From IMG/VR virus record IMGVR_UViG_3300006875_000115, positions 1 through 27,803 of that record: 27,803 bases of DNA. One strand, written 5' to 3'. A program made the translations under genes and the position numbers. The notes beneath the pieces are model-generated. The model saw only the letters and a program-made list of their open reading frames with translations. It ran no database searches and was not told the origin of the DNA. Shown here piece after piece: positions 2,507 through 25,418 of the stretch. The stretch's first letter is position 1, and every line of letters begins with the position of its first letter. This DNA comes from a virus. Taxonomy: Duplodnaviria; Caudoviricetes.

Positions 2507-2514
2507 CATAAATA
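2507..2514 (+). promoter_or_regulatory. putative T4-type late promoter (CATAAATA) for the leader-tagged array
   Basis: NATAAATA in the short intergenic gap about 40 nt before the first MISFKNFL gene. Confidence 0.45.
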
Positions 2515-2552: not shown

Positions 2553-3083
2553 ATGATTAGTTTTAAAAATTTTCTCAGAGAAGAGAAGAAAAATAGTGGC
2601 GATGATATAAACACTCATTATACTCATCTTCCACCAGAACCAGGAACAACACCAATTCCCGATGGTCATATTCGTCTATATCATAGAACTCCCGCATCGA
2701 ATATGAAATCAATAGCAAAAAATGGTTTATCAATAGACCATGCTAAGGGTTATGAAGGACCAAAGGCAATTTATGGGGACCCAAAGGGATTTTATGGAAA
2801 GCCTGGGGATGTTACTGATGGAAGTGTAGATGTTGAATTTCATGTTCCTAAAGAAAAATTTAAAGGAACTATGGTTCATATGGATGAAGTTCCCACTAAA
2901 AATATCATAGCAATTCACCAGAATTGGCATAAGACTGCTCGTTATATTAAAGATGATCCTAAATCTATAAAGGCTGTATTATCAGGTGAACATGACAATC
3001 TTTTAGATGGTAGTGAAGGTGATCAATATAAATATTCAATAAAACATATTAAACATGTTTTTGGAAAATCCAATCATGATTAG
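2553..3083 (+). CDS. putative internal head protein with ADP-ribosyltransferase-like domain
   Basis: MISFKNFLREE leader; LYHRT...N..SI..NGL resembles the H-containing first strand and helix of Tpt1/KptA/PARP-like ART folds. Confidence 0.6.
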   Translation: MISFKNFLREEKKNSGDDINTHYTHLPPEPGTTPIPDGHIRLYHRTPASNMKSIAKNGLSIDHAKGYEGPKAIYGDPKGFYGKPGDVTDGSVDVEFHVPKEKFKGTMVHMDEVPTKNIIAIHQNWHKTARYIKDDPKSIKAVLSGEHDNLLDGSEGDQYKYSIKHIKHVFGKSNHD

Positions 3084-3522
3084 TTTTAAAAACTTTCTCA
3101 AAGAAAATAAAGATGATATGCCTAAATTAATATCTAAATCGTGGGATGTATCTCATATGTCGTCAAATATGGATAGTATTTCAAATGGATTTGAACTTAG
3201 AAGGTTAGGAATATCTTTTGCTAGAAATGGTAGAGAGAGGCCATATTCATCACCAACAGTAAGAGATATGAACGGAAAACGTGGGATGGTAAAAGCAAAA
3301 GTATATGGTTCTGGATTAGATTATGATACTAAATCCCATAAAGAATACATACAAAACCTTCATGATAAACATAATTCAGATGTTGGAGTTATACATGAAT
3401 TACGTAGTCGTGGGGTTGATTGGGTATCTGGATGGAATGGTATAGGACATAGTGATGAATTACATGTATTAAGTCCACATAGAATAAAGATTAAATCACT
3501 AACTCCACTGGACAAACCATGA
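3076..3522 (+). CDS. putative internal head protein, divergent ART-PolyVal-like domain
   Basis: Start reassigned from 3055 to the ATG at 3076 (MISFKNFLKE). VSHMS...GISFA...LRSRGVDWV...DELHVLSPHRIKI parallels the ART-PolyVal layout. Confidence 0.55.
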   Translation: MISFKNFLKENKDDMPKLISKSWDVSHMSSNMDSISNGFELRRLGISFARNGRERPYSSPTVRDMNGKRGMVKAKVYGSGLDYDTKSHKEYIQNLHDKHNSDVGVIHELRSRGVDWVSGWNGIGHSDELHVLSPHRIKIKSLTPLDKP

Positions 3523-3568
3523 TTAGTTTTAAAAATTTTCTCAATGAATCTCAATGGATGTATCATGG
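3519..3568 (+). repeat. 50-nt direct repeat, copy 1 (copy 2 at 4688..4737)
   Basis: atgattagttttaaaaattttctcaatgaatctcaatggatgtatcatgg is 49/50 identical to 4688..4737. Shorter copies of its 5' part occur at 2553, 3076, 5370 and 5885. Confidence 0.9.
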
Positions 3569-4244
3569 TTCAGTTGAACCCAATTTAAAAACTATTGAAC
3601 GCAATAAAAATGATTATTCAACATTAGATACGCAAATAGGTGCCCATTTTGCTGCTGATCCAGAAATTTCTAGGAAATTTGCTAAGGGATTGTATAATCG
3701 TAAAAATAGTGAAGGCGGCAATAAAGGTGCAGTTTATAAAACTAAATCATTAAAAAGATCAGAATTATACGTTGTGCCACAAAAAACCTATAAATGGTCT
3801 GGGCAAAAAGAGGGTGATCAACATGCTGTCGGCGCCCATGTAGTATCTACTGTTCTTGGTCATCCTAAACATAAAGAAATGTTTAAATCCTGGGTTAAGA
3901 ATGCCCGACGGGTTGATGATAAAACAGCAGAGGAAATTCATGATCATTTATCTAGAGGAAAGGCCCCAGCAGATAAGGAAAAATTTGGCCTAGCTGCACA
4001 TAAAGGCAATTCATTTAAATCTTATTTTAAAAATTTTGATAGTGAATTAATGCATGAACCAGAAAAAGGATTTAAAGAAAAAGTAATTAGTCATTATCAT
4101 GATATTATGAAGGCAAAAGGTAAAAAAGGTTTGGTTTATCATAATACGGCTCCAATGGAAAAAGAAGGTGTAAGATCAAAGAAAAATTATATTGTGTTTG
4201 AACCAGAAAAATTAAGCATAGAAAAACATGAGGAAATTAAATAA
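3519..4244 (+). CDS. putative internal head protein, ART-PolyVal-like domain
   Basis: MISFKNFLNE leader; MYHGS, GAHFAADP, KGKKGLVYHN and YIVFEP motifs. Confidence 0.65.
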   Translation: MISFKNFLNESQWMYHGSVEPNLKTIERNKNDYSTLDTQIGAHFAADPEISRKFAKGLYNRKNSEGGNKGAVYKTKSLKRSELYVVPQKTYKWSGQKEGDQHAVGAHVVSTVLGHPKHKEMFKSWVKNARRVDDKTAEEIHDHLSRGKAPADKEKFGLAAHKGNSFKSYFKNFDSELMHEPEKGFKEKVISHYHDIMKAKGKKGLVYHNTAPMEKEGVRSKKNYIVFEPEKLSIEKHEEIK

Positions 4245-4687
4245 TGTCAGCAATATCATCATTTAATAATTTCCTCTATTTACATAAATTATATAAATTA
4301 CCTGTTGATGAGAAATTTGACATAATTGAAGACATGGTAACAAATTTATCTGAAAATTCAAATGTTGATCCAGAAATTATTTGGACTGATTTTGAGAATG
4401 TTGATGATGCTGAATTATTTGAAAGTGCAGCATGGCAACGTAAGGAAGGTAAGAGTGAATCTGGTGGATTGAATAAGAAAGGTGTTGAAAGTTATAGACG
4501 GGAAAATCCTGGTTCAAAATTACAAATGGCCGTAACAACTAAACCAAGTAAATTGAAGAAAGATTCTAAGGCTTATAATAGAAGAAAATCATTTTGTGCT
4601 AGAATGTCTGGCGTTAAAGGTCCAATGAGAAAACCTAATGGCGAACCTAGCAGAAAAGCATTAGCATTACGTAAATGGAATTGTTAG
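4244..4687 (+). CDS. DUF6321-like phage protein
   Basis: AAWQRKEGKSESGGLNKKG...RRKSFCARMSG...ALRKWNC is a recurrent phage domain (recalled as DUF6321), preceded by an acidic N-terminal extension. Confidence 0.65.
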   Translation: MSAISSFNNFLYLHKLYKLPVDEKFDIIEDMVTNLSENSNVDPEIIWTDFENVDDAELFESAAWQRKEGKSESGGLNKKGVESYRRENPGSKLQMAVTTKPSKLKKDSKAYNRRKSFCARMSGVKGPMRKPNGEPSRKALALRKWNC

Positions 4688-4737
4688 ATGATTAGTTTTA
4701 AGAATTTTCTCAATGAATCTCAATGGATGTATCATGG
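4688..4737 (+). repeat. 50-nt direct repeat, copy 2
   Basis: 49/50 identity to 3519..3568. Confidence 0.9.
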
Positions 4738-5377
4738 AACAACATATCCAAAGGAACTTACACATATACAACGAAATGAAAAAAGTATAGATACCGATAA
4801 GGCTATAGGTGCTCATTTTGCTGCTGACCCGGAGGTAGCCAAAAAATTCGCCAGTGGGGTAAATAAGCCTAATTCTAGTAAAGGTGTAGTTTATAAAACT
4901 AAAAGACCAACTAGATCAGAATTAGAAGTAGTTCCGCAGAAAAAAGGACATCAGGATGAAGATTCGGTAGAAACTCATGTGTTTTCTACTGTTTTTTCGC
5001 ATCCAGATAATAAAAATTTGTTTATTAAGTGGCATCAAGATAAATTTAGTTCTACACATGAACAGGCATCTAACATTCATTCTAAACTAATGAATAAAGA
5101 AAATATTCCAGTAGATAAGAAAGAATATGGATATGACCATTCAAATAAAAATACATTTAGGTCATTTATGAATCATCATGGCACATATGCTCGTAATGTA
5201 AATGGTAAATCTATTCATAAAGAAATAATGAGTAAATTTATAGATCATATGAAATCTAAGGGTAAAAAGGGATTAGTTTATAAAAATACACGCCCAGATG
5301 AAACTGAAGGTGCAGATTCTACTAAGAGTTATATTATTTTTGAACCAGAAAAGATGAAGGTAGAAAAACATGATTAG
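4688..5377 (+). CDS. putative internal head protein, ART-PolyVal-like domain (paralog of 3519..4244)
   Basis: Same first 17 residues as 3519..4244; MYHGT, GAHFAADP, KGKKGLVYKN and YIIFEP motifs. Confidence 0.65.
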   Translation: MISFKNFLNESQWMYHGTTYPKELTHIQRNEKSIDTDKAIGAHFAADPEVAKKFASGVNKPNSSKGVVYKTKRPTRSELEVVPQKKGHQDEDSVETHVFSTVFSHPDNKNLFIKWHQDKFSSTHEQASNIHSKLMNKENIPVDKKEYGYDHSNKNTFRSFMNHHGTYARNVNGKSIHKEIMSKFIDHMKSKGKKGLVYKNTRPDETEGADSTKSYIIFEPEKMKVEKHD

Positions 5378-5885
5378 TTTTAGAAATTTTTTAATAGAAA
5401 GAAATGTTGATCCAGAGCAATTAGCGGTAAAAACTGCTAAAATTTATGGTAAAAAAACTAATTATGGTAAATGGTTAAAGGCGGATAAACAGGAAAATAT
5501 TCCATTATCCAATTACAATAAAGGTGAAGTGACTAAGGCAGAAAATAAATTATATAAGTATCATGAAAAATTGGGAATGTTTTCTGATAATACATCAGAT
5601 AGGGTTGAAGCTAATAAAACCTATGAAGGTAAATTTTCAGATAAAACAATGAAAATTAGTGATCTTTATGCGACTCAGCCATTTATACGAACAAGTGATA
5701 GAGAGCAATTAAAAAATAAAATAGACAAAAAGACATCTAGTGATATAATGGTAATTAAACATAATGGTAAACACTATGTTATGGACGGCCATCATACTGT
5801 CATGGCGGCTAAATTTCGTGGAGAGAAAGAAGTTAATGTTAGGCATTTTGATTTAGATGCGGAAACTGCTAAAGGAAAGAAATAA
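5370..5885 (+). CDS. putative internal head protein with ParB/Sulfiredoxin-like domain
   Basis: MISFRNFLIE leader; ISDLYATQ and HYVMDGHHTVMAA match the ParB/Srx DGHH motif. Confidence 0.7.
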   Translation: MISFRNFLIERNVDPEQLAVKTAKIYGKKTNYGKWLKADKQENIPLSNYNKGEVTKAENKLYKYHEKLGMFSDNTSDRVEANKTYEGKFSDKTMKISDLYATQPFIRTSDREQLKNKIDKKTSSDIMVIKHNGKHYVMDGHHTVMAAKFRGEKEVNVRHFDLDAETAKGKK

Positions 5886-6420
5886 TGATTAGTTTTAAAA
5901 ATTTTTAAATGAGTCAAAAGAAAACTTGATGAAATGGTTTGGTAATAGTGTCACACATGAAAAAGGTGTGCCGAAAGTATATTACCATGGCACATCAAAA
6001 GATAAGGATTTTAGTTCATTTAATGTAGGAAGACATGGTGCATGGTTTACATCTAATCCAGAAGAAGCAAGTAGTTATTCTACTGAAAATGACAGTATGG
6101 GTCATACATACTCGCACGAAAAACACACATATGAGAAAACAAATACTAAAAGTAGAGTAATTCCTGCACATATAAAAGCAGAAAATCCACATACTGGCGA
6201 ATTTCCACAAGAATTGAGACACAAAAGTGATAATTATAAAAAAACTCAATCTGACTGGTTTGATACATTAAGAGCTAAAGGGCATGATAGTTGGATACCA
6301 AAAAGTTCTGGTGGCAATTTAGTAGTAGTATTAAAACATGCTAATCAAATTAAATCATCAATTGGTAATAAAGGATCATATGATTCTAATAAGAAAAATA
6401 TTCATGAAGGTTCGGAATAG
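5885..6420 (+). CDS. ART-PolyVal-like protein; leader (5885..5905) out of frame with the domain by 1 nt
   Basis: ATG at 5885 gives MISFKNF then TAA. One extra T in the T5 run at 5902..5906 restores MISFKNFLNESKENLMKWF. The domain has PKVYYHGT, GAWFT, LRAKGHDS and QIKSSIGNKGSYD. Confidence 0.7.
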
Positions 6421-6989
6421 TGTATATTACATTTAGTGCAATTATATCATTTTTATTGGGGGCTTTTGGTAGAAGAATCTGTGGTGGGTTATTTGAAACC
6501 TGGACAAATCTAAAATGGGGACAACCTACTAGACTCTTCTTTGGATTGACCCTAGCAACCGCCGCATTTATCTCAGGAGCGCCTTTATGGGTATCGGCTA
6601 TACTCATTCCCCTAGTCTGGGTAGGGACCACTCTGGGGCTATTTGGTGGGCTTGGAATGGGTCGGGAAGGTAGAGACGAATTACCCAATTATTTTAGTAG
6701 AGTATATTTAAGAGATTTTGGTGCCATGACATTACATGGAACATTATCAATTATACTTCCTTCTATATGGGCATGGTATTTTGGTTATAACGTATTTCCA
6801 ATTATCTTATCAGGATTATTAATTGGATTTTGCTATGAACTTGGATATAGGATTGTTGGTATTAATCCTAGACCAGAACCATTTAATAAACCAGGATGGC
6901 CAAATGGATTTAATGGTTCCCCTGAATGGGGAGAACTAATTTGGGGTGGTGTGAGAGGATTAGGCATTTCAGCCGCAATTTTATCTTGA
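6420..6989 (+). CDS. multi-pass membrane protein
   Basis: GTG start overlaps the previous stop; several Gly/Leu/Trp-rich hydrophobic segments. Confidence 0.7.
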   Translation: MYITFSAIISFLLGAFGRRICGGLFETWTNLKWGQPTRLFFGLTLATAAFISGAPLWVSAILIPLVWVGTTLGLFGGLGMGREGRDELPNYFSRVYLRDFGAMTLHGTLSIILPSIWAWYFGYNVFPIILSGLLIGFCYELGYRIVGINPRPEPFNKPGWPNGFNGSPEWGELIWGGVRGLGISAAILS

Positions 6990-8103: not shown

Positions 8104-9204
8104 TTATTGAGTTAGTTCTTTATATAAAGAATCAGTATCGCTTAGTCTAGATTTGGCCGTATTTTTAACTGTTTCATTTTCATCATTTAGGGCCATTTTA
8201 AAATGATGTGGCTCGGCATTTTTATGTTTAATAGCATAATATCTTACTTTTGCATTATCATCTTTTAACATCTTTTCTATATGAGAAGATTGTAGTTTAT
8301 TATTTCTACCTAAATTATATTTTACTAATGGACTTTTATCATCAAGTAATTTATCTATATGAGAAGAATCGATATTATCATGATCACTTATGGTCATTTT
8401 ATCACTTACTGAACCAGTATCAATAATATGATGTATTTGGTTATGACTTAAATTGGGATGATATATTTCTTCTTCCCCGGAATCAGAATATACTTTAGGA
8501 TGAACTTTATACGTTGATAATTCCACTTTATCGGAGCTTAATTTTTTAGCGATGTTTTTAACATGTTCATGAAACCCCTCATGCTTTATTCCATAATGAC
8601 TATCAACATGATATATTCTATGTCCATTTTTGCCAATATAAGGTTGCATAGTTATTCTAGATATTTCTTTTCCCGTGTGATCATGTAAATAAGAAACAAC
8701 TGTCCCATGTTCTACTTCATGGGGTAAATGTTTTTTCATTTTACCAGTATTGAAATTTTTACAAGATTCATTTTCCCATGATTGATTATGAGAGGTTTGA
8801 CCAGCTACACCTTCTGGTGACCGTGTTGTTCTTACTGTTAAACCAGTAAATTTTTTGCCTTGTCTAGTGCCATCAGTAGCATAGGAATTAATAAGATGTT
8901 CTGATATTTTATTTTGTCTTAAAAAAGAACCGAGTCTAATATCTCTATTATATTTATCTTTTATGATACCTTTTTTATAATCATCAATATGGATTTCTTG
9001 TCCTAAATGACGTTCAATTTTTTTATGTATTTCTGATTTATTCATACTATTCGGTAATATTTCTTTTATTTCATCATTACCCTTTCCGAAATAATGATCA
9101 GTATGTAATAATGCCTCTGGGTCACGTTTCCAGGTTCTAACTTGTTGTTTTTCTTTTAAATTTAACTCTTCACGAATAACTAAAAATTTTTTAAAATTTA
9201 TCAT
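8104..9204 (-). CDS. putative internal head protein with C-terminal HEAT/LRV-like repeats
   Basis: MINFKKFLVIREE leader; repeats IDKLLDDKSPLVK, IEKMLKDDNAKVR and FKMALNDENETVK at about 24-aa spacing. Confidence 0.6.
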   Translation of the reverse strand: MINFKKFLVIREELNLKEKQQVRTWKRDPEALLHTDHYFGKGNDEIKEILPNSMNKSEIHKKIERHLGQEIHIDDYKKGIIKDKYNRDIRLGSFLRQNKISEHLINSYATDGTRQGKKFTGLTVRTTRSPEGVAGQTSHNQSWENESCKNFNTGKMKKHLPHEVEHGTVVSYLHDHTGKEISRITMQPYIGKNGHRIYHVDSHYGIKHEGFHEHVKNIAKKLSSDKVELSTYKVHPKVYSDSGEEEIYHPNLSHNQIHHIIDTGSVSDKMTISDHDNIDSSHIDKLLDDKSPLVKYNLGRNNKLQSSHIEKMLKDDNAKVRYYAIKHKNAEPHHFKMALNDENETVKNTAKSRLSDTDSLYKELTQ

Positions 9205-14526: not shown

Positions 14527-15315
14527 TTATCCACTTCCCATACTAAAATCTTGCACAGGATCATTATTTTTCTTTTTCTCGGATACGTCAATAACAATTG
14601 GAATATTTGCTTCACTTTTACCTAAATCATTCTTCAATTCAAGTAAAAGTTCTGGTCCTTTATTATTAGACTTAGTATCGGTATATTCAAGATATACATT
14701 TGAATTTTTTAAATGATGAAGAAATTCGTTATACAAACGTTCTCTATCTGCTAGGCCAATACTACCACCATTGATCAGTTTTGTCAATGCTAATACATCG
14801 CCTTTATCTGCTGGGACGGAACATCCTCTCATTTCCCAATACCAAATAGCACTTAGAACTGCTCCATGTGGAGATAATAGGTAATTTGGATTAGTTACTA
14901 CGTCAATGCCACAGTAATCAGCAAATCTTTGGTAATTATCTTTTCCTGTTAATTGAATTAGTCCGCGCCCGCGATAATTATAACCATCACCAGAATTCTC
15001 ATTACCATTACCCATTCTATTTGCATAAACTCGATTAGCAATTTTAATGGGCTGCCTATGATATTCGCCGGCATAGATTTTAGTAAAATATTTTGGGAAT
15101 ACAATTAATAGTCTATCAGAAGAATAATTTAGATTTTCTTCGACTACACTAAATCCCATGGATTCGTGGCCAACTTGGGATAAAAATCCTGCTAGTTTCC
15201 TATCAGTATTAATTCCATATGAAAATACATTATTTAGGTCAGTTTCATATTGGTCAATTTTAGATGTTTCAGTTCGTGGAAATACTGTTTTAATAATATC
15301 GGTAATTTTACTCAT
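14527..15315 (-). CDS. glycoside hydrolase family 19 endolysin
   Basis: FLSQVGHES, ENLNYS, YRGRGLIQLTG..NY and INGG..GLADR. Confidence 0.9.
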   Translation of the reverse strand: MSKITDIIKTVFPRTETSKIDQYETDLNNVFSYGINTDRKLAGFLSQVGHESMGFSVVEENLNYSSDRLLIVFPKYFTKIYAGEYHRQPIKIANRVYANRMGNGNENSGDGYNYRGRGLIQLTGKDNYQRFADYCGIDVVTNPNYLLSPHGAVLSAIWYWEMRGCSVPADKGDVLALTKLINGGSIGLADRERLYNEFLHHLKNSNVYLEYTDTKSNNKGPELLLELKNDLGKSEANIPIVIDVSEKKKNNDPVQDFSMGSG

Positions 15316-19675: not shown

Positions 19676-21622
19676 TTAAGTAGTAATCTTTTTATTCTTT
19701 TTTAGTTGATTAACATCGGCAGTTGCGCTTGCTCCTAATTGTGCAAGGTCTGCAAGTGTTCCCCCGAATATGTATGATCCTACATGCTGCAATGCCATCC
19801 AGGGACATAGCCATACTTTACCGCCCATCTTTCTCACATTCTGACAAAAGAAATAATCTTCTGATAGATATCTTTTTGTCTCTGGTTCAATGATACAATC
19901 AAAATATGCAACAATTTCTCTGCTGCCATCGAATGCATCCGTGCGAACATGATCGGGCTTATAACTATACTGTGGATACGCCTCTTTGTAAAGGTCAAAA
20001 GTTTTACGACGAATCATCATAAATCCAGTTCCGGTTTCCAGAACTTCGGCAGGTTCATTAATTTGAATATGAGTAGTATTGCTGGCAGGATTAAAGACAT
20101 AATCTCCAACATATTTATTTAAATTCTCTGGATCGTCATCGGCAAATCCCTTATCGACTGCCATCTTAATTTTTTCCCAGCTAATACAATTAGCAATAAA
20201 AACTGTATTATATAGGAAATTGTGATTATTCTCTACACCAATATCATATTGATCACTATCATAGTCAATTTTCTCTACAGATTCAATTTTAGTAGCAGCA
20301 AATTCTAATCTATCATTATTTAATGGAATGAATTCACTATTTCTATATTTTTCTGGAAGTTTATATTGCATATATTCTGGAATATGTTTTGATATAATTT
20401 GAAAAAATTTATCAGCATCATCATTAACAAATCTTAGTCTTTTATATGTTCTTTTAGTATCGTCATTGGCTGTAGGTTGCATTTCGTCAATACGAATATT
20501 AAATCCATAGGTATTTTTAAAATATTCGACAAGAAGTAATTGATCATCATCAGAAAATCCCTGAGTATTTAATTCACAATAATGTGCAGTATCGCCAGAC
20601 TTCTTTAAACAACCATCATCCATATACCAAAATGCTAAGGCAATATCATTGATGTATGGGATTATGTTCTTTACAGTTTTCTTATTATTTTCAAAAAATA
20701 ATTCTCTGGCATATTTTGTTTGTCCATTGACTATAGACGAAAGTTGAAAAATTTGTGAAGTAGAATATCCAACTGATTTATATTCTCTAATAGTTCCACC
20801 AAAAAGATTTCTTTTATATTCTAGATATTCTTTTTGTTTTTCTCCATGGCTACATGATAATCTATTATCCCTACCGGATATATGGCTATCTCCCATCAAT
20901 GTTCCAATTAACGAAGAAACGACATCTGTATTATATAAAGCCTGTGATCTTACGTTTTCTGGATTTAAAGATGTGTATTTCCCGACCATTTCATCAACTT
21001 TTTTAAATTGAATAGTTGGCCTAAATAAATCTTCAACATATGAAATTTCATGATCATAAGTCATAATCAATTTTTTAGCTTTAGTTGGATGTTTTGATAA
21101 TTTAACTTCAACCCATTTATTATTATTAGGATTTACATGATGTTCTAAAATATTATTCCAGGCAGTTTTACCATTTTCATCAATGGTTAATACTTTTCCA
21201 TTATATTTGTTATCAACAATCCATTTAATTCTTTTGTAACCGTCCTCAGTTAAAATTTTGGCATTTTTATGAATTGATTTTTTTGGATACGGACCGGCTA
21301 ATACATCATATGGAGATTCATCAGACATCATGGCAAGCATAGCAATAACATCATTAGCATTGAAACCAATATCGGCGTCAACGAATAGAAAATGAGTAGA
21401 ATCACTACGTAGAAATTCATCTACACAATAATTTCTTGCGCGGGGAATTAATGATTCGTTGAATAAAGAGTAGAATTTCATTTCTATTCCATATTTCATA
21501 CAAACTGCTGTTAGATCAGATATTGACCTATTATAGATACCAGCACACATGCCCCCATACATTGGCGTGCTAAGAAATAATTTCTTTTTTTGTAGTTCTT
21601 CGTGGGTAATTTTAATTTCCAT
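19676..21622 (-). CDS. GT-A glycosyltransferase-like protein precursor containing an intein
   Basis: Exteins carry TPMYGG, ESLIPRARN, FLFVDAD (DxD), GTGFMMI and YLSEDYFFC; predicted spliced product 285 aa. Confidence 0.8.
   Translation of the reverse strand: MEIKITHEELQKKKLFLSTPMYGGMCAGIYNRSISDLTAVCMKYGIEMKFYSLFNESLIPRARNYCVDEFLRSDSTHFLFVDADIGFNANDVIAMLAMMSDESPYDVLAGPYPKKSIHKNAKILTEDGYKRIKWIVDNKYNGKVLTIDENGKTAWNNILEHHVNPNNNKWVEVKLSKHPTKAKKLIMTYDHEISYVEDLFRPTIQFKKVDEMVGKYTSLNPENVRSQALYNTDVVSSLIGTLMGDSHISGRDNRLSCSHGEKQKEYLEYKRNLFGGTIREYKSVGYSTSQIFQLSSIVNGQTKYARELFFENNKKTVKNIIPYINDIALAFWYMDDGCLKKSGDTAHYCELNTQGFSDDDQLLLVEYFKNTYGFNIRIDEMQPTANDDTKRTYKRLRFVNDDADKFFQIISKHIPEYMQYKLPEKYRNSEFIPLNNDRLEFAATKIESVEKIDYDSDQYDIGVENNHNFLYNTVFIANCISWEKIKMAVDKGFADDDPENLNKYVGDYVFNPASNTTHIQINEPAEVLETGTGFMMIRRKTFDLYKEAYPQYSYKPDHVRTDAFDGSREIVAYFDCIIEPETKRYLSEDYFFCQNVRKMGGKVWLCPWMALQHVGSYIFGGTLADLAQLGASATADVNQLKKNKKITT
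20189..21277 (-). mobile_element. intein with LAGLIDADG homing endonuclease (363 aa, residues 116-478)
   Basis: Block A SIHKNAKILTEDG, block B TYDH, LAGLIDADG-type LIGTLMGDS and LAFWYMDDG, block F YDIGVENNHNF, C-terminal FIAN followed by Cys+1. Removal restores YPKK|CISWEK. Confidence 0.9.
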
Positions 21623-24335: not shown

Positions 24336-25418
24336 ATGGATAAATTAGAACAACATATCGTGCTTATTCGTGATCATAGTATGTCTATGCTATCTCTCGC
24401 ACCAGCAGCAATGAAAGATTTCAATTCACTAATTGATACAATTCGGGAATCGGCAAAAGCTAATAATGTAGATACTACAGTATCAATCATTGAATGTGGT
24501 TCCCCATCTACTGATAGGGTAGATGCACTGTATAGTCCATTTCCGAATACCGGGCGGCGTTCTTATACCGAAAACTTTTTAGTTAATGTAGTTACAAAAT
24601 GTGAAAACATTAATTTCGTATTTAAAATGCTAAATTATAAAACTCCTGGTTCATCGACTCCACTACTAGATTCAGTAGGTAAGGGTATTGAACTAGGTAA
24701 GAAAATTCGTGAGAGTAATAAGAATATTCCAGTTCTGGTTATGACTATTACTGATGGTGGAGAAAATTCATCTTCTAATTGGAATAAGTATTCTATTGCT
24801 AATGAATTTAAAGAATTAGCAAAGACTGATATGTGGACGTTTGCTTTCCGTTGTCCAAAAGGATATTCTCGTCATCTACATTCACTAGGTATTAGTGCTG
24901 GTAATATCATTGAATGGGATCAAACTGAAAAAGGTATGCAAGAATCTACTGCATATACTGAAAGTGCCGTTCGTAATTATTATAATGATCGGACTGACAT
25001 TGGTGCAACATCAACACAAAAATTCTTCGTTGATACTTCTAAACTGAACACATCAACAGTAAAGCGGAAACTTACTCCAAATCCATATAATTCATATAAA
25101 GTATTTAATGTTGCGAATGTGTGTGATATTAAGACCTTCGTAAATGACACTTATGGATATTATCAAATTGGTGATTGGTATTATCAGCTAACTAAGACTG
25201 AAACTCTACAGTCATCCAAGATGATTATTATTCGTGATCGTAAAAATGGTGAAATGTATACTGGACTCGATGCTCGTGATCTGCTAGGATTACCAGAAGT
25301 TGGGCAGGTTAAAATCGTTCCAATCAATACTACGAAATATGACGTATTTGTTCAGTCTCTATCGGTAAATCGGAAGCTGATGCCAAATACTCAAATTATT
25401 AAATATACACGACCATAA
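24336..25418 (+). CDS. von Willebrand factor A domain protein
   Basis: MIDAS DHSMS, TPLLD and ITDGGEN; AAAGGA SD. Confidence 0.85.
   Translation: MDKLEQHIVLIRDHSMSMLSLAPAAMKDFNSLIDTIRESAKANNVDTTVSIIECGSPSTDRVDALYSPFPNTGRRSYTENFLVNVVTKCENINFVFKMLNYKTPGSSTPLLDSVGKGIELGKKIRESNKNIPVLVMTITDGGENSSSNWNKYSIANEFKELAKTDMWTFAFRCPKGYSRHLHSLGISAGNIIEWDQTEKGMQESTAYTESAVRNYYNDRTDIGATSTQKFFVDTSKLNTSTVKRKLTPNPYNSYKVFNVANVCDIKTFVNDTYGYYQIGDWYYQLTKTETLQSSKMIIIRDRKNGEMYTGLDARDLLGLPEVGQVKIVPINTTKYDVFVQSLSVNRKLMPNTQIIKYTRP

Follow-up and report, generated by a model that had tools for sequence, protein, structure and literature searches.

The virus record IMGVR_UViG_3300006875_000115, analysed here over its whole length of 27,803 nucleotides (the window), originates from a T4-like phage and carries at positions 2553–6420 a row of seven abutting or overlapping plus-strand open reading frames (ORFs), five of which encode proteins resembling ADP-ribosyltransferases (ARTs). 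Homologues of the T4-type replication genes gp41, UvsX, gp43, RegA, gp62, gp44 and gp45 were identified on the minus strand by profile matches. The helicase showed approximately 51% identity to those of the nearest cultured phages, which are cyanophages, pointing to a distant lineage. Metagenome runs with window DNA were of freshwater origin, and no RNA run was among those listed. A first-pass annotation, made from the letters of the DNA, had read the row as one polyvalent protein broken into single-domain units.

A six-frame pattern search of the 27.8 kb showed that six of the seven genes start with a near-identical ten-residue tag, M-I-S-F-K/R-N-F-L-x-E. The 30-nt unit (2553..2582, plus strand; repeated at 3076, 3519, 4688, 5370 and 5885) comprises the start codon, the ten-residue address and a predicted L-x-E protease site; its DNA starts with ATGATTAG and contains stop codons in both other frames. 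Elsewhere in the six frames only a variant was found, heading a gene at 9204–8104, and none of the replication and metabolic genes of the window carries the tag. The row begins with gene A (2553..3083), whose 176 aa product consists of the tag, a KptA/Tpt1-like ART domain and C-terminal helices. In gene B (3076..3522, listed as an ORF from 3055; 148 aa) the tag is joined to a likely ART domain and in gene C (3519..4244; 241 aa) to a predicted ART fold. A gene with a DUF6321 domain follows (4244..4687; 147 aa), which has a degenerate tag-like start with no Glu at position 10. Gene D (4688..5377; 229 aa) encodes a tagged paralogue of C, and a ParB/Srx-like gene (5370..5885; 171 aa) the tag and the domain of that name. 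Finally, in gene E (5885..6420) the tag at 5885–5908 is out of frame with an ART-PolyVal body, the open frame of which runs from 5926. The products of the row are small and mostly basic, with a pI of 9.1–9.6 for six of them and 7.9 for A.

The motifs quoted in the first-pass annotation could all be located, i.e. LYHRT (2553), VSHMS (3076), MYHGS (3519), MYHGT (4688) and YYHGT (5926), DGHH in the 5370 protein, the presumed catalytic-strand motifs DELHV, KNYIV, KSYII and NLVVV and the closing QIKSSIGNKGSYD. The G-x-x-F strand that it had assigned to four domains is present as GISF in B, GAHF in C and D and GAWF in E, but the late x-P said to follow is absent in E. The annotation had overlooked the common tag, the DUF6321 gene within the row, the change of frame between tag and body in E and the paralogy of C and D. 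An ATAAATA sequence on the plus strand at 2508..2514, 45 nt upstream of gene A, is a weak candidate for a T4-type late-promoter box; it also lies 42 nt upstream in the related loci L006 and L020. Exact ATAAATA precedes 4 of 13 tagged genes checked and, by eye, many others have TAAATA, as do two early genes.

The tag resembles the capsid targeting sequence (CTS) of the T4 internal proteins (IPs). According to PMC9026906, residues 4 and 7 of this sequence are responsible for packaging, and residues 8 and 10 for the cut that gp21 makes after L/I-X-E. The leader of both IPII and IPIII is MKTYQEFIAE, with which the window tag agrees at the four key positions 4, 7, 8 and 10. These positions are kept in 30 of 31 C/D homologues (window C counted), while positions 2, 3, 5, 6 and 9 vary. 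With aromatic residues at 4 and 7 and L/I-x-E at 8–10, the leaders mark the products of the row as predicted T4-type internal proteins, except that the tag is out of frame in E and degenerate in the DUF6321 gene. When the pattern was run as a control on 13 kb of T4, IPII and IPIII were the sole matches and IPI, which has a longer leader, was missed; 150 of the 177 kb of Syn9 gave one ORF. Two patterns fixed before the run were applied to the cultured cyanophage S-CREM2, for which 52 of 219 proteins are listed in the virion proteome (PMC10665884). They picked five ORFs, four of them in the virion proteome (2/2 for the strict pattern), an enrichment with p 0.012, or p 0.0012 among non-structural genes. 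By analogy this result supports the tag class and not the proteins of the window directly. A search for the exact tag DNA pattern returned 1 locus.

For protein C a structural model was built from 31 homologues (pLDDT 89.5), in which approximately 100 residues of helices are inserted into the fold. Among 48,161 solved chains the best match was the catalytic domain of diphtheria toxin (Z 8.8, rmsd 3.5, 135 residues aligned). The titles of the best 50 matches listed name ART toxins, PARPs, RES, DarT, Arr and Tpt1, enzymes that we take to share the ART fold; the exceptions are a cyanophage pre-ejectosome chain, the anti-CRISPR 6KYF and one uncharacterised protein. 6KYF is AcrIF11 (bioRxiv 2024.08.26.609590), to which C aligned with a Foldseek E of 0.007 (Z 5.0, rmsd 4.7, 121 aligned) and no sequence match. 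When C was compared with viral models, 19 matches passed an E of 0.001. The best of these was a 1022-aa phage protein annotated as ParB/Srx (E 7e-13, TM 0.68), and ART-PolyVal entries were at ranks 7 and 9. The model of C thus displays the split beta-sheet, NAD-binding ART fold, and the same fold is predicted for D, which is 46% identical to C. His16, His43 and a loop Glu214 were noted in C, the last being invariant in 31/31 C/D homologues. No cultured phage was hit by tblastn with C, and no locus was found in the genome-contig search.

The model of A (pLDDT 76.7) matched best to the NAD-binding lobe of KptA/Tpt1 (Z 7.4, rmsd 3.2, 76 aligned, 22% identity), and its Atlas neighbours with a family were PARP, Arr and Tox-ART-HYD1 at 0.89–0.90, supporting a KptA-like ART fold. 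E scored 58.9 bits against ART-PolyVal (PF18760; cut-off 31.2) and is assigned by Pfam to this family and its ART fold. It is the sole member of the row above this cut-off, and A, B, C and D gave no match to the profile at E 0.1. For A–D no ART family was found in Pfam, PHROGs and NCBIfam, and PDB sequence searches with alignments A2–A6 revealed nothing meaningful. Profile comparison of C/D with E reached 89.6%, over an aligned region that includes the common tag. In B, His27, Ser47 and Glu128 are invariant in 18/18 aligned homologues, which are short ones chosen from 45 found, and its Atlas match to ART-PolyVal clusters was 0.92. Hence the five ART-like domains originally claimed hold for E through Pfam, for C and A through predicted models that match ART folds and for D through C, whereas for B the data weakly suggest such a fold. 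In an inferred strand register (not taken from model coordinates) the triads are H-Y-none in A (His44, Tyr74), H-S-E in B, H-H-N in C, H-H-S in D and H-W-N/L in E. The triad H-Y-D, given for polyvalent ARTs in PMC5512222, occurs in none of the five.

A ParB-like domain had also been claimed for the 5370 protein. The ParBc_2 profile gave 18.9 bits with this protein (E 0.0017), below the cut-off of 23.6; the E for a ParB-like PHROG was 0.002 and a PDB sequence search gave no match. The motif reads GHHT in the window, L004, L008 and L021 and GHHR in L012 and L013, i.e. in the window protein the nucleotide-binding arginine of GxxR is replaced by Thr. Mutation of this arginine was used as a no-binding control according to PMC12704722. 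Cyanophages and pelagiphages encode the DUF6321 domain very frequently (529 records), and it is located C-terminally in many unrelated proteins. The window DUF6321 gene has an internal 'LFES' before the domain, like a protease site.

In gene E, the tag frame is closed by a stop behind the seventh codon, and the body lies in a different frame; a run of five T stands at 5902–5906. Identical letters were found in contigs of runs X1 and X2, which may be sources of the record, of runs X3 and X5 and in L005; these runs are all 2017 freshwater runs, perhaps from one campaign, and the listed pieces of X4 miss the site. An assembly error was rejected as the cause because the same letters recur in these contigs. 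L021 contains an intact E of 178 aa with the tag in frame. Judged from these sequences, E in the window strain is a broken or untagged allele, which would be made untagged or at a low level and would mostly not be packaged. At 5897–5908, the letters ahead of the premature stop, A-AAT-TTT, fit the X-XXY-YYZ pattern known from -1 slippery sites. Slippage there could yield some tagged E; the same run occurs in intact tags and need not be programmed. The viral-contig search found no locus for E or B.

Comparison of related loci showed that the locus is polymorphic in number, order and identity of its genes. The order is A-C-DUF-D-B-new in L006, A-B-C-D in L007, (C/D end)-E-ParB in L021, ParB-C in L008, ParB::A fusion-new-C in L019 and A-new-C in L020; L001 contains a lone C as its one ART, with flanking genes as in the window. 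The end of D is followed by the ParB-like gene (window, L004), by B (L006, L014) or by E (L021), and the end of A by B, C or another cargo, the switch falling at the tag. B bodies are 96% identical, yet their tags are 83% identical and equal those of their neighbours. Among 28 genes from 9 loci (window E excluded), tag identity was 0.887 within a locus (34 pairs) and 0.826 between loci (275 pairs), with p 4e-4 in a permutation that ignores kinship. In a 427-nt contig of run X11, position 5387 is joined to 5902, whereby the ParB gene is lost and the tag comes in frame with E. The upstream stop codon lies wholly within the next tag at 15 of 23 junctions, and 7 more show a one-base overlap. Crossing-over inside the 24–30 nt of tag DNA would be the simplest reading of these data. 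L019 also carries a natural in-frame fusion of the ParB-like protein with A (L019:85-1125; 346 aa), which begins with a single tag and reads 'VNEE' where the two parts meet. It looks secondary, VNEE being a possible leftover cleavage site, and may be a two-domain polyvalent-like protein in the making.

The proposed link to the domains of polyvalent proteins was borne out, as proteins of 875–4044 aa contain homologues of A, B and E. At the loci of A homologues inspected (24 kept after 7 of 31 apparent duplicates had been dropped), the ORF measured at least 800 aa in 14 and at most 200 aa in 9, and several short homologues carry T4-like or other leaders. In the B family, 10 of 37 representatives exceed 1000 aa, with partners including MuF and LPD1. 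The strict tag was found in none of these 37, but in two of the eight closest B homologues, five of which have another short leader. In phage Dfl-JY45 the homologue of E is part of a 2387-aa protein. The closest homologues stand alone, in searches limited to 0.55–1.75 times the query length. Nowhere in the row does one chain combine at least two effector domains; the seven ORFs are unchanged in independent contigs and the lone two-domain case is that of L019. It appears that the domains of the row were drawn from the polyvalent pool, but that the row itself is built of tagged single units.

Most likely, the row is a polymorphic internal-protein locus like the IP loci of T4, with enzyme domains from the polyvalent pool, and not one broken polyvalent protein. 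We consider it probable that these are separate genes reshuffled at the tag, that the tag loads the products into the prohead and is cut after Glu10, and that the ART-fold domains are injected to modify the host. In this model, the row would be read late in infection as one coupled operon and each product would bind the prohead core through its tag. The head protease would remove the ten residues, and the freed domains would enter the next host with the DNA and act within the first minutes. B, in which His, Ser and Glu are kept, as well as C and D might catalyse NAD-dependent transfer onto host proteins, most plausibly defence proteins; T4 offers a precedent with its three Ips, each of which blocks a GmrSD of its own (PMC12373910). 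The helical insert of C and D could serve as a target reader, as predicted for AcrIF11, the variable helical region of which is implicated in target recognition by a model (bioRxiv 2024.08.26.609590). A might act on nucleic-acid phosphate ends, like KptA, and the ParB-like protein could, more speculatively, be a non-catalytic binder or decoy. In addition, the tag DNA would supply a stop codon to any gene placed upstream. Delivery with the virion, as proposed in the first-pass annotation, is thus likely, and the ART-like proteins may differ in target or include decoys, as it had also suggested.

Several observations weigh against this model. The head genes lie outside the window contig and were also not found in two related fragments; a search of these fragments for the prohead protease PF03420 gave no match, although the control was silent as well, making this a weak test. 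ATAAATA is not enriched in the window (14 sites compared with 33 expected), which leaves the promoter box as weak evidence. The S-CREM2 test is an analogy based on five ORFs with unrelated cargo, one tagged ORF is not detected in the virion list, and such proteins may co-purify according to PMC10665884. Tag pairs of the same cargo reach an identity of 0.859 (45 pairs), close to the within-locus value, with kinship uncontrolled, and three further joints in X7 are of little weight with short sides of 23–35 letters. With regard to the fold, the Atlas match of B covers 162 of 256 features compared with 170 typical of true family members, and in profile comparisons (hhalign) the probability for B was 0.8% versus C/D and 0.1% versus E, neither being significant. 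The Z scores are middling. For C, the uniformity of the match list carries the ART argument, because only one listed row reaches Z 8 and Foldseek searches of the PDB with the models of C and A gave no E < 0.001. Moreover, the acidic residue of the last strand is missing at its usual position in A, C, D and E.

This loss in four of the five ART-like proteins would fit a largely non-catalytic role for the packaged and injected proteins, which could be binders, NAD sinks or decoys (or basic core filler), comparable to the stoichiometric IP inhibitors of T4. The ParB-like protein, lacking the very arginine whose loss served as no-binding control (PMC12704722), and the one-to-one specificity of GmrSD inhibition by T4 Ip1–3 point in the same direction. 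However, the first-strand His and the pocket residues are invariant within each family, including Glu128 of B (18/18) and the loop Glu214 of C/D (31/31), and AcrIF11 is active with a non-canonical H-F-H-D (bioRxiv 2024.08.26.609590), so that we regard a mainly non-catalytic role as rather unlikely. Near-identical tag DNA could also spread by recombination alone, and E persists in the window without an in-frame tag. The tag might then be a leader spread by duplication and the proteins might remain in the cytoplasm, acting late against a superinfecting phage or in a transcription switch, like ModA/ModB. This is improbable in view of the four CTS residues being under selection across distant phages while the DNA differs, of the enrichment in the S-CREM2 virion list and of the absence of the tag from replication and metabolic genes.

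The large proteins containing homologues of A, B and E and the single ParB::A fusion are what could be expected if the row were the remains of one polyvalent protein split into single-domain genes, as the first-pass annotation had proposed. A protein or locus in which these domains are fused as they follow one another in the row was not found. Every gene has a start and a tag to itself, the units come from at least four unrelated lineages, their order, number and content vary, and the closest homologues in the length-limited searches stand alone. The proposal is not supported by these findings, and we give it the smallest chance among the explanations considered. An injected internal-protein array with ART-fold cargo remains our preferred explanation.

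The resemblance to the T-even IP loci extends to the ten-residue leader with aromatic residues at 4 and 7, an aliphatic residue at 8 and Glu at 10, and to unrelated small basic cargo at polymorphic loci (PMC9026906, PMC3012670, PMC12373910). The T-even IPs are small GmrSD inhibitors, while the cargo of the window comprises ART- and ParB-fold enzyme domains in seven overlapping genes. The junctions of the window fall within tag coding DNA, in contrast to the shuffling of T-even IPs, which Repoila is said to have ascribed in 1994 to flanking promoter repeats. T4 Alt, too, is an ART that travels in the head, undergoes processing by gp21 and is injected; it is one large enzyme of the R-S-E type whose target is RNA polymerase, whereas the window encodes small His-type domains, five at once. 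AcrIF11, the structural neighbour of C, is also a phage ART of small size whose residues are non-canonical and whose helical region varies, and the accessible text of bioRxiv 2024.08.26.609590 does not report it as tagged or packaged. A shares the NAD-binding domain of KptA/Tpt1, but lacks the N-terminal RNA-binding lobe and has C-terminal helices of its own. Polyvalent proteins of the ART-PolyVal type draw on the same pool of ART and ParB-like domains and are predicted to be delivered with the virion; they combine 2–15 domains per chain according to PMC5512222, compared with one domain per gene, each with its own tag, in the row.

Head-packaged ARTs have been proposed as widespread (PMC9503650), and the accessible part of PMC13326640 provides background on IPI only. 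In the literature covered, which included few subscription papers, neither an array of several tagged ARTs nor shuffling by way of the tag was found described. Tagged polymorphic IP loci are known from T-even phages; apparently new is the panel of ARTs reshuffled at the tag. Searching for the tag offers an easy way to catalogue, from sequence, the proteins that T4-like phages without cultured representatives are likely to inject. For the window, this catalogue comprises four or five ART families that differ from one another and have unusual active sites; they are candidates for new, enzymatic anti-defence proteins akin to AcrIF11. One and the same domain pool would thereby be delivered in two ways, by tagged internal proteins as in T4 and by giant polyvalent proteins, and a testable route is offered for the gain, loss and fusion of injected cargo. 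As a tentative extension, to which we give somewhat less than an even chance, the 30-nt tag might unite a capsid address, a protease site and a self-punctuating recombination site. The row would then be an integrase-free cassette array in which translation, termination, packaging and injection come to any captured domain in one step. Large T4-like phages would employ it to present a combinatorial panel of ARTs against different host defences, and loss of a stop at a tag would fuse cassettes into nascent polyvalent proteins.

The separate variant-tag gene (8104..9204, minus strand) encodes 366 aa with C-terminal HEAT-like repeats and appears to represent the same system at another locus. Relatives of this protein measure 460–588 aa with varying repeat number, and their genes adjoin the helicase gene or sit among tagged genes. 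Further tagged cargo with no family match was noted at L006:4033-4494, L018:9606-10214, L010:64-618 and L018:5140-5601; by eye, two of the four have a ParB/Srx-like HEGRNR motif, one is GNAT-like and one ART-like. L018 contains about eight tagged genes in two rows. The tagged cargo at L019:1112-1735 and L020:557-1219 has an Arg-first strand (YRG), a YF-T motif and a late Glu (NEIGV/HEIGV). It looks like an R-S-E-type ART, with no match in Pfam or NCBIfam. In S-CREM2 (L070), gp6 and gp12–15 are virion-detected non-structural genes in one reverse-strand block, most with tag-like starts. At L061:3296-6983 a homologue of A stands in a row of small genes with another leader, P-x-Q/H-P-R-x-P-K-G, which suggests that another phage lineage has a second tag system. 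A 154-kb contig carries close homologues of B, C and D (P0012, P0025, P0041), two of them named from a Candidatus Levybacteria bin; this is probably a phage contig binned there and no host is assigned from it.

The array is flanked at 1090–2506 and 6420–6989 by conserved genes for a SAM methyltransferase, a 278-aa protein that matches no family and by eye resembles a glycosyltransferase, and a membrane protein of 189 aa, also present in L001, L006 and L021. On the minus strand, a glycosyltransferase-like gene (19676–21622) is split by an intein with a LAGLIDADG endonuclease, and in the relative G001 UvsX and DNA polymerase seem to be split by similar elements. A GH19 endolysin gene (14527–15315, minus strand) is inserted directly upstream of the DNA polymerase gene, and a 360-aa vWA-like protein (phrog_26613) is encoded at 24336–25418.

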